Shown: piece by piece, positions 2,380 through 5,199 of the stretch | Layout of the letters: the number at the start of each line of letters is the position of its first letter | How positions within the stretch are numbered: the stretch's first letter is position 1 | Origin: a virus | Lineage: Duplodnaviria > Heunggongvirae > Uroviricota > Caudoviricetes | Virus record (IMG/VR): IMGVR_UViG_2698536646_000001 | Direction: 5' to 3' (one strand) | DNA: 7,672 nt | The notes under the pieces: generated by a model | Databases searched by the model: none | Seen by the model: the letters and a program-made list of their open reading frames with translations, nothing else | What the model was told of the DNA's origin: nothing | Position numbers and translations under genes: made by a program

Positions 2380-3733
2380 TTTCTGGACTATGCGGGCACG
2401 TAACAAAGTGCTTTATGGTGGTCGGTCATCGTCAAAATCATGGGATGCCGCTGGCATTGCCATATTTCTGTCGAATAAATACACCCTGCGTTTTTGTTGT
2501 GCCCGTCAGATCCAGAATAAAATCGAAGAGTCGGTGTATACCCTGCTCAAAATTCAGATAGACAGGTTTGGTCTGCGGCACCGTTTCCGTATTCTGAACA
2601 ACAAAATCATTAACCGGGTTACTGGCTCGGAATTTGTTTTTTATGGATTATGGCGCAACATCGAAGAAATTAAGTCACTGGAGGGGATCGATGTGTTGTG
2701 GCTGGAAGAAGCCCACGCACTGACGGAATACCAGTGGAAAATTCTGGAGCCAACGATCCGTAAAGAGGGTTCGGAATGCTGGTTCATATTCAACCCCGGA
2801 CTTGTTACTGATTTCGTCTGGCGCAACTTCGTTGTTGATCCGCCCGAAGGCACTCTCATCCGCAAAATTAACTATGACGAAAATCCGTTTCTGTCTGACA
2901 CCATGCTTAAGGTTATCGACGCGGCGCGACGCCGTGATCCGGATGGTTTTAAACATGTGTATGAGGGCGTTCCGGAGTCTGATGATGATGCGGCAATCAT
3001 CAAACTGTCTTGGATAGAAGCCGCAGTGGATGCGCACAAAACGTTAAATTTCGAACCCAGTGGAAGAAAGCGTATTGGCTTTGACGTGGCTGACAGTGGT
3101 ACAGATAAGTGCGCTAACGTTTACCGTCACGGATCCGTTGTTTTCTGGGCCGACGAATGGAAGGCCAAAGAAGATGAATTACTGAAGAGCTGCCAGCGTA
3201 CTTATCAGGCGGCGCTGGAGCGTGAAGCAGATATTGTTTACGACTCTATCGGTGTTGGTGCGTCTGCCGGTGCTAAATTCTCTGAAATTAACGCTGACCG
3301 GAAGAGCGAGAACGCATACGCGCGACGTGTGAATTACCAGAGGTTTAACGCCGGTGCTGGTGTGCATGAGCCAGATGACGAGTACAACGGCATCCCCAAC
3401 AAAGACTTTTTCGCAAATCTTAAGGCTCAGGCATGGTGGCTGGTGGCTGACCGTTTCAGAAATACGTTTAACGCCATTAACAACGGAGAACAGTATCCTG
3501 TGGATGAGCTGATCAGCATAGATTCTCGTTGTCCGTTGCTTGAAAAGCTGAAACTGGAACTGACAACACCTCATCGTGATTTCGACCGTAACGGACGTGT
3601 GATGGTCGAAAGTAAAAAAGACCTCGCAAAACGCGAGATACCGTCACCAAACGTTGCTGATGCATTCATTATGGCCTTCGCGCCAATCGATACATCGCTG
3701 GATATCTGGGAACAGCTGGGGAGACAGGCCTGA
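2330..3733 (+). CDS. Terminase large subunit, PBSX-like family (ATPase plus nuclease)
   Basis: Walker A-like KVLYGGRSSSKS (compare GGRGSGKS in PBSX-type TerL) and Walker B-like DVLWLEEAH. The protein is about 467 aa from the ATG at 2330, which has GGAG 12 nt upstream. The start is ambiguous: in-frame ATGs also occur at 2222, 2303, 2306, 2312 and 2390. Confidence 0.8.
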   Translation: MTSTLTSKPTLNPALRSFWTMRARNKVLYGGRSSSKSWDAAGIAIFLSNKYTLRFCCARQIQNKIEESVYTLLKIQIDRFGLRHRFRILNNKIINRVTGSEFVFYGLWRNIEEIKSLEGIDVLWLEEAHALTEYQWKILEPTIRKEGSECWFIFNPGLVTDFVWRNFVVDPPEGTLIRKINYDENPFLSDTMLKVIDAARRRDPDGFKHVYEGVPESDDDAAIIKLSWIEAAVDAHKTLNFEPSGRKRIGFDVADSGTDKCANVYRHGSVVFWADEWKAKEDELLKSCQRTYQAALEREADIVYDSIGVGASAGAKFSEINADRKSENAYARRVNYQRFNAGAGVHEPDDEYNGIPNKDFFANLKAQAWWLVADRFRNTFNAINNGEQYPVDELISIDSRCPLLEKLKLELTTPHRDFDRNGRVMVESKKDLAKREIPSPNVADAFIMAFAPIDTSLDIWEQLGRQA

Positions 3734-5199
3734 TGGCACGAAACAAACAAGCCCTGCGGCGAACTGTGCAGGCCACAGCTGATGGTTATGAGAATTTTAT
3801 TGCCCGCGTAGGGATGCAGACACCTAACCAGCACTCAGCATCCACCTACCGGGCTAATTTCACCAGTCGTAACCGCATGCTGGTGGAATGGTCCTATCGT
3901 TCATCCTAGATCATCGGCGAAGCAGTCGATGCTATCCCGGATGATATGACCCGCAAAGGCATTCGCATCACTTCGGAAATTGATGCAAAAGATCGTGGCA
4001 TTCTCGAATCACAACTGGATGAGTTGCAAATCTGGGATGCGCTGAATGACGTGCTGAAATGGTCGCGCCTCTACGGCGGCGCGGTGGGTTTCATCATGAT
4101 TGAGGGGTAGGCACCAATGACCCCGCTGCGACCCGAAACCATCGGTAAGGGCAAGTTTAAGGGGATTCTCCCGCTCGACCGCTGGATGGTCGACCCGGCA
4201 CTGACCCGCCGCATTAAAGATATGGGGCCGGACCTGGGTAAACCTGAGTTTTACGATGTGGTGACCACAGCAACGGGAATTCCTGCCTGGCGCATTCATC
4301 ACAGTCGCCTGATTCGCTTTGATGGCGTCACGTTGCCATTTCAGCAGAAGATGACCGAGAACGAATGGGGAATGTCGGTTGTAGAGCGTATCTGGGATCG
4401 TCTTACCGCGTTCGACAGCGCTACTGTCGGCGCGGCGCAGCTGGTCTACAAGGCGCATTTGCGTACCTACAGCGTGGAGAAGCTACGCGAGCTTATCGCA
4501 CTTGGTGGTCCTGCGTATGAAGCGTTGCTGAAGAATATCGACCTGATTCGACAGTTCCAGAGTAATGAAGGCATGACGCTCATGGACTCGCGGGATAAGT
4601 TTGAAACCCATCAGTACAGCTTCAGTGGTCTGGATGACATCCTTTCGCAGTTTGTAGAACAGATTAGTGGCGCTGTTGGTATCCCACTGGTGCGGTTGTT
4701 CGGACAGTCCCCGAAAGGATTTTCTACCGGTGATGCAGACCTTGCCAACTATTACGATCGCATCAGTTCGTTGCAGGAGAGGCGTTTACGTCTTCCGGTG
4801 CGGCGGATACTGGACATCATGCATCGTTCGGAACTTGGCAAGCCGCTGCCGGACGATTTCACGTTTGAGTTTAACCCGCTCTGGCAAATGTCTGATGTCG
4901 ATCGCTCAACGGTGGCGTTAAACACCACCAACGCAATCAGTACGGCGCTGGGTGATGGTCTGATGACACTGAAAGCCGCTATGACTGATTTGCGAGAAAA
5001 TTCTGACGTAACCGGCATCGGGGCATCCATTACCGACGAGGACATCGAGAATGCCGAAGATGAAGCGCCGCCCGGCATCGGCGAACCTGATGACGAACCG
5101 CAGGAGCCGTCAGGCGGAAATCCGGTATCGAACCAGCCTACGCAGGATAGCGAGGGCGGTCGGAGACATCGTAAATGGTCGCTACGATGGTTCAAATGA
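3733..5199 (+). pseudogene. Portal protein (DUF1073-like), single frame interrupted by two in-frame TAG codons
   Basis: The ATG at 3733 overlaps the TerL stop (ATGA). One continuous frame of about 488 codons runs to the TGA at 5197-5199, with TAG at 3907-3909 and at 4108-4110 and no frameshift. The segments MARNKQALRRTVQATADGYENFIARVG... / IIGEAVDAIPDDMTRKG... / APMTPLRPETIGKG... read as one portal protein with an acidic C-terminal tail. Confidence 0.7.

Follow-up and report, generated by a model that had tools for sequence, protein, structure and literature searches.

The DNA analyzed here, referred to below as the window, is the whole 7,672-nucleotide (nt) stretch of IMG/VR virus record IMGVR_UViG_2698536646_000001, and its phage portal gene is interrupted by two in-frame amber (TAG) codons. 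This gene is very probably an ordinary nonsense pseudogene, in which G:C>A:T transitions would have been fixed by drift within a defective Shigella sonnei prophage bounded by insertion sequences (IS). The window would represent a 7.5-kb late-region remnant of a lambdoid/myovirus-type prophage that lies between IS2 and IS1 in the S. sonnei chromosome. The changes TGG>TAG at codon 59 and CAG>TAG at codon 126, together with the missense change A308V, would be independent spontaneous events in the S. sonnei stem lineage, and their fixation by drift would be expected in a clonal, genome-degrading pathogen, as selection no longer acts on the prophage genes. An earlier note on this DNA, made from its sequence alone, had preferred pseudogenization of a cryptic prophage by point mutation, a reading that is borne out by the codons of outgroups, by the fixation of the allele, and by the truncation of the prophage by insertion sequences.

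The portal frame and its ancestral codons

Translation of the window gives a plus-strand frame of 488 codons at 3733-5199 that ends in TGA and contains exactly two internal stops, both of them TAG, at codon 59 (YRSS*IIGEAV, where the asterisk is the stop) and codon 126 (FIMIEG*APMTPLRPE). With these two stops, the whole portal protein is not encoded by an uninterrupted single open reading frame (ORF). The remaining five frames of the same interval contain 9 to 35 stops each, which identifies 3733-5199 as a true gene frame rather than a product of chance. All 1467 nt could be aligned to intact relatives without gaps, and the portal frame therefore carries no indels. The translation and the gap-free alignment agree with the earlier description of a frame that is open except for two TAG codons and free of indels.

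Family membership was tested with the PF06381 hidden Markov model (gathering cutoff, 33.8 bits), using as the query a reconstituted protein with the ancestral codons at both stops. The reconstituted 488-amino-acid (aa) portal scored 355.4 bits. The pieces encoded in the window matched adjoining parts of the model, with scores of 40.0 bits for the 54-aa fragment and 274.5 bits for the 360-aa fragment, and the 58-aa fragment gave no match to PF06381. In comparisons of sequence only, the reconstituted protein also matched the Pam3 portal (8hds; E=2.2e-37) and gp19 of Pseudomonas phage E217 (8fvh; E=1.1e-14); Trp59 is retained in both of these portals, and Gln126 is retained in that of Pam3. The position of the gene is that expected of the family, with the gene for the terminase large subunit (TerL) immediately 5' of it and a Mu F-like gene, a DUF2213 gene, and a cement gene following it. 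Judged by its profile match and its two internal stops, the portal gene of the window is a pseudogene of the PF06381 family rather than a functional member.

The nearest intact copies, found in the "E. coli" genomes FDAARGOS_944, FDAARGOS_943, and VL40 and encoding WP_000113499.1, are only three bases apart from the portal gene of the window: G>A at 3908, C>T at 4108, and C>T at 4655, the last of which results in Ala308Val. The 80 close relatives found in viral contigs divide into 77 with TGG, CAG, and GCx at the three codons and 3 that carry all three changes together. Sense codons at the two stop sites were likewise found in S. flexneri SFBU1023, ECMA0423, E. coli PEC148, and an S. dysenteriae-type copy; the full 488-aa gene is intact in SFBU1023 and ECMA0423, and the portal is annotated as one uninterrupted ORF in PEC148 and in phage SEN34. 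No intermediate with a single TAG was found among the 80 viral contigs, the listed places of the 58- and 360-aa fragments, or the species-representative genomes.

The earlier note had proposed alignment to intact portal homologues to see which amino acid occupies each site. In a panel of 100 full-length homologues with 58-91% identity, every member has Gln at position 126; at position 59, 86 members have Trp, 11 have Ala, and 3 have Ser, and the residue at position 308 varies. Neither codon 59 nor codon 126 is a stop in any member of the panel. The two stops thus fall at codons that are sense codons in orthologues, and the outgroups polarize the stops as the derived state. Given the sense codons of the intact relatives, each TAG is explained by one derived G:C>A:T transition. 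The conversion of TGG to TAG, offered in the earlier note as an example, applies to codon 59 and fails for codon 126, where the ancestral codon is CAG.

The same allele is widespread in S. sonnei. Positions 1-482 and 637-7672 of the window are 100% identical to several complete chromosomes, including HE616528.1 and CP019689, which are those of S. sonnei 53G (lineage II) and 75/02 (lineage IIIc) (PMC5447701), and at least 10 S. sonnei genomes that are complete or nearly so contain the identical sequence, as expected of an inherited allele. The 58-aa fragment is indexed in 2737 assembly blocks and the 360-aa fragment in 2576, and the 58-, 54-, and 360-aa pieces co-occur in every place among the matches listed. 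Most of the contigs bearing these fragments are 5-10 kb long, as would be expected of an IS-bounded 7.5-kb unique segment in short-read assemblies. By this identity across genomes, the double-amber allele is real and fixed in S. sonnei. In public records, the fragments appear under names such as "putative bacteriophage protein [Shigella sonnei]" and, for the 360-aa piece, Q3Z426_SHISS.

Error, readthrough, recoding, and neutral decay

The first alternative to a decayed gene, which the earlier note had also listed, is that errors in sequencing or assembly created the stops. The record is imperfect, as its run of Ns shows, and nothing else in favor of this alternative was found; against it, the same sequence occurs in independent complete genomes obtained with different technologies, and more than 2,500 assembly blocks contain the fragments. 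The presence of one allele across independent S. sonnei assemblies leaves sequencing error with practically no probability. Readthrough of TAG, through a suppressor tRNA or leaky termination, such that a functional full-length portal is still made, is also highly improbable. Many in-frame stops in bacteria have been argued to be tolerated via readthrough (Belinky et al. 2021, PMC7918605), and intact relatives of this prophage have tRNA arrays upstream of their lysis genes. However, ARAGORN found no tRNA in the window and no tRNA with a CUA anticodon in 10 related loci of 11-21 kb. The scanned loci contained sense tRNAs only (Thr, Gly, Arg, Val, and species with a CAT anticodon), none of the tRNAs of the arrays has a CUA anticodon, and the S. 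sonnei neighborhoods hold a single tRNA, with a CAT anticodon. A suppressor tRNA, raised in the earlier note, was rejected on these results. Moreover, TAG is the genuine terminator of the Rz gene (817-819) and of the gene in the TerS position (2377-2379), as the earlier note had stated and as a check of the ORFs confirmed; two serial stops would multiply the loss of product; and both sites are free of stops in all homologues. With the capsid, neck, and tail genes lost, no particle would be possible and even a working portal would be left without assembly partners. Least probable of all is that TAG has been reassigned in the phage, as in recoding of late genes, or that the three pieces are normally separate genes. 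The stops do sit in a late structural gene, as is reportedly the case in recoded phages, but the portal is the only gene affected, with no internal stops in the other genes of the window, and TAG ends two of its neighbors. The near-identical relatives have sense codons within one 488-aa ORF, and no suppressor tRNA was found in the scanned loci. The argument made earlier against general reassignment of TAG is therefore upheld, and the arrangement as three separate genes, which the earlier note had considered, is contradicted by the intact homologues. As far as these comparisons go, the portal stops are no evidence for amber suppression or recoding. Since there are two stops, no suppressor tRNA nearby, and demonstrable use of TAG as a terminator, translation of the portal would end at codon 59, and no full-length protein would be produced. 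Products reinitiated at the ATG codons at 3946 (54 aa) and 4117 (360 aa) would be unable to form a dodecameric portal because the conserved N-terminal part is missing.

The kind of mutation is that expected of spontaneous decay. In the ancestral portal gene, nonsense outcomes make up 3.4-6.2% of the possible substitutions, depending on the mutation model, and TAG accounts for 50-57% of these nonsense outcomes, a consequence of the many CAG (17) and TGG (11) codons in the gene. It is thus unremarkable that both stops are TAG, the chance of two out of two being roughly 0.25-0.33. The changes at 3908, 4108, and 4655 are all G:C>A:T transitions, which are the dominant class of spontaneous mutation in bacteria. 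Several points nevertheless weigh against an ordinary nonsense pseudogene fixed by drift. When polarized by outgroups, these three changes are the sole S. sonnei-derived substitutions in 1613-7582 (~6 kb); the other late genes of this interval have none. Under uniform neutral mutation, the probability that all three would fall in one gene is about 0.04, and the probability that at least two of the three would be nonsense is about 0.004-0.011. The tRNA scan, moreover, is confined to the window and 10 neighborhoods. The portal may have been silenced non-neutrally, by selection against its expression (for example, owing to toxicity or to a host pattern-recognition defense) or by a local burst of G:C>A:T changes, although this is unlikely. 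Such silencing is favored by the concentration of the three S. sonnei-derived substitutions, all G:C>A:T and two of them nonsense, in a 748-bp stretch of the portal gene, and by the independent destruction of the portal by IS1 in the S. dysenteriae-type copy. Set against it are the small number of events (three) and the post hoc nature of the test, the superfluity of a second stop after the first, and the fact that a defect in the portal gives the host no protection from lysis. A simple model of clustered deamination on a single strand was rejected, since the G>A change and the two C>T changes are on opposite strands. In the S. dysenteriae-type copy, substitutions are spread over three genes with no excess in the portal, and the S. 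flexneri-type copies retain the portal and instead have lesions in TerL and the Mu F gene. The clustering in the portal is nominally unlikely but was given little weight, since the locus was chosen for its oddness, the events number only three, and S. sonnei contains hundreds of decaying genes. An opposite claim of no clustering, based on 7-8 unpolarized differences across the window, was dropped because the outgroups place most of these differences on the branch of the relatives.

Decay of the same prophage can be followed in other Shigella. The S. dysenteriae-type copy (IMGVR_UViG_2609459817_000001), which was aligned to 4040-7582 of the window and whose translation is the Sd197/1617 protein, has the end of an IS1 in the portal gene at about window position 4040 (about codon 103) and retains CAG at codon 126. 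Elsewhere in this copy, Gp24 has a CAG>TAG change at codon 82 and the DUF2213 gene has a 7-bp deletion, and the start of the capsid gene is intact; 8 of its 12 substitutions are G:C>A:T, and they fall in the portal, DUF2213, and Gp24 genes. A 360-aa protein is also recorded in S. dysenteriae Sd197/1617, and a shared or convergent Q126* was rejected as its source: with CAG at codon 126 and IS1 near 4040, the equal length is a coincidence of gene calling at Met129. The S. flexneri-type copies have an IS2 in TerL, a lesion common to FDAARGOS_943 and S. flexneri SFBU1023, and an internal stop in the Mu F gene, with the portal intact. From the differing lesions of these copies, the same prophage is decaying independently in S. 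sonnei, S. dysenteriae, and S. flexneri.

The prophage remnant between IS2 and IS1

The features of the window are listed in Table 1. The capsid gene is cut by IS1 and the holin gene is interrupted by IS2, and by this content the window is plainly an IS-bounded, gutted, and defective prophage remnant, whatever the state of its portal gene. The IS2 lies about 20 nt before the end of a class II holin gene (window 1-91; locus L007 4386-5721), with a 5-bp target duplication deduced from overlapping matches. At the other end, homology to intact prophages stops at 7582, and in complete S. sonnei genomes the IS1 that starts at 7583 (window 7579-7672; locus L004 13467-14234) is directly followed by chromosomal pgl and ybhD. 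Comparison with the intact layout of VL40 reveals a loss of about 20 kb that contained the capsid, neck, sheath, tube, baseplate, and fiber genes, and the whole region from capsid to tail looks to have been deleted through IS1, a second copy of which stands nearby in place of ybhH/ybhI.

Table 1. Coordinates of features in the window (positions in nt; + and -, strand; TerS and TerL, terminase genes)
Feature	Position	Strand	Basis
IS2 end, inserted in the holin gene	1..86	-	match to annotated IS2 in FDAARGOS_943
Last 23 nt of holin gene, then 5' part of lysozyme gene (RrrD-like, ATG at 109)	87..482	+	
Run of 154 Ns; S. sonnei 53G has 408 nt here (lysozyme 3' end, Rz 5' end)	483..636	.	
Rz-type lysis gene, 3' part (PF03245), genuine TAG end	637..819	+	
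DedA-family (VTT domain) membrane protein gene, moron between lysis and packaging modules	908..1420	-	
TerS-position gene, 254 aa, intact, no Pfam match, genuine TAG end	1615..2379	+	
Terminase large subunit gene (PF04466), intact; its TGA stop and the portal ATG have one base in common (3733)	2330..3733	+	
Portal pseudogene (PF06381 Phage_portal_3 / DUF1073), two internal TAG	3733..5199	+	translation, alignment to intact copies
First amber codon, from TGG (Trp59) by G>A at 3908	3907..3909	+	intact relatives
Second amber codon, from CAG (Gln126) by C>T at 4108	4108..4110	+	intact relatives
C-terminal portal fragment, 360 aa, as annotated by gene callers; GAGGGG 5' of ATG	4117..5199	+	
Third S. 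sonnei-specific change, GCA>GTA (Ala308Val) by C>T at 4655; variable position	4654..4656	+	relatives, homologues
Mu F-like head morphogenesis gene (PF04233), intact	5090..5833	+	
DUF2213 / Pa193_gp24-like head gene, intact	5837..7057	+	
Cement/decoration protein Gp24 gene (PF22758), intact	7061..7567	+	
Residue of major capsid gene (DUF2184), ATGA only	7579..7582	+	capsid start at this point in L001, L003
IS1 left end	7583..7672	+	match to annotated IS1A in VL40; InsA and DDE_Tnp_IS1 genes next in L004-L013

The run of 154 Ns replaces 408 nt of S. sonnei 53G (L007 6113-6520), comprising the lysozyme 3' end and the Rz/Rz1 5' end, and it shifts the coordinates on either side by 254 nt. An ORF listed at 109..819 is an artificial fusion of lysozyme and Rz across this run. 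Of the 17 differences from the VL40 copy, 7 lie in the 408-nt stretch behind the Ns, a distribution suggestive of a recombination patch or mosaic boundary. The DedA-family moron is present only in Shigella-type copies; three "E. coli" genomes cover it, and the others match from 1613. The TerS-position gene overlaps TerL by 50 nt and is annotated just as a hypothetical protein. For the Mu F-like gene, the PGAP start (247 aa) gives an overlap of 110 nt with the 3' end of the portal gene in another frame, and other gene callers place the start at 5375 (152 aa).

Intact relatives have a small tRNA array between a Q-like antiterminator and the holin gene (L001 1-228; L003 309-616), whose members have a CAT anticodon or are Arg-TCT, Thr-TGT, and Gly-TCC or Val-TAC. 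In some strains of S. sonnei (L007 2320-2393), the tRNA with the CAT anticodon alone survives, and IS elements fill the rest of the array site. The prophages of VL40 (NZ_CM177011.1 1612000-1661000; L096) and FDAARGOS_943 (L002) are surrounded by hallmarks of Shigella, namely, ipaH beside the tail fiber genes and many copies of IS600, IS1, IS2, IS4, and IS150, and these two genomes may be Shigella or enteroinvasive Escherichia coli filed as E. coli.

Relation to known portals, recoded phages, and Shigella pseudogenes

The 58-, 54-, and 360-aa "putative bacteriophage proteins" of S. sonnei are best regarded as pieces of one dead portal gene, and the consequence for annotation is a single pseudogene entry in place of three separate ORFs in many S. 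sonnei records. Beyond annotation, the significance is small: the portal pseudogene is of a kind already known, and it provides a small, tidy example of prophage decay in Shigella. One prophage in three Shigella lineages has acquired different lesions, including IS1, IS2, a small deletion, and CAG or TGG>TAG transitions, and this fits the known degradation of these genomes by IS and by mutation.

The closest known system is the orthologue WP_000113499.1, which occurs in Shigella flexneri-type genomes and in "E. coli" FDAARGOS_943/944 and VL40. It shares 99.8% identity with the portal gene of the window over 1467 nt without gaps and has the same neighbors (DedA moron, TerS-like gene, TerL, Mu F gene, DUF2213, and Gp24), but it carries TGG, CAG, and GCA where the window carries TAG, TAG, and GTA. 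The prophage of the orthologue keeps its capsid and tail genes, unlike the window, yet has IS insertions of its own. Salmonella phage SEN34 (Brunovirus), Escherichia phage vB_EcoM-606R2, and their relatives match the portal gene over its full length at 85-98% DNA identity and have the same order of TerS, TerL, portal, head morphogenesis, and capsid genes; these differ in having been deposited as phage genomes, with the portal ORF unbroken in each. The solved portals 8hds and 8fvh are homologues by sequence but are distant, with about 30% identity or less.

Phages with recoded stop codons, reportedly described by Ivanova and colleagues in 2014 and by Borges and colleagues in Nat Microbiol in 2022, resemble the window in having in-frame TAG codons within a late structural gene. 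In contrast to those phages with suppressor tRNAs, no suppressor tRNA was found here in the scanned loci, TAG terminates neighboring genes, one gene alone is hit, and the relatives have sense codons. The pseudogenes of Shigella genome degradation offer a further comparison. At least 199 pseudogenes, produced by IS insertion, nonsense mutation, and frameshift, are reported for each Shigella reference genome (Hawkey et al. 2020, PMC7373316), and the remnant described here shares with these the organism, the IS families (IS1 and IS2), and the mix of IS, deletion, and nonsense lesions. There is no difference in kind; the portal gene has simply received two nonsense hits.

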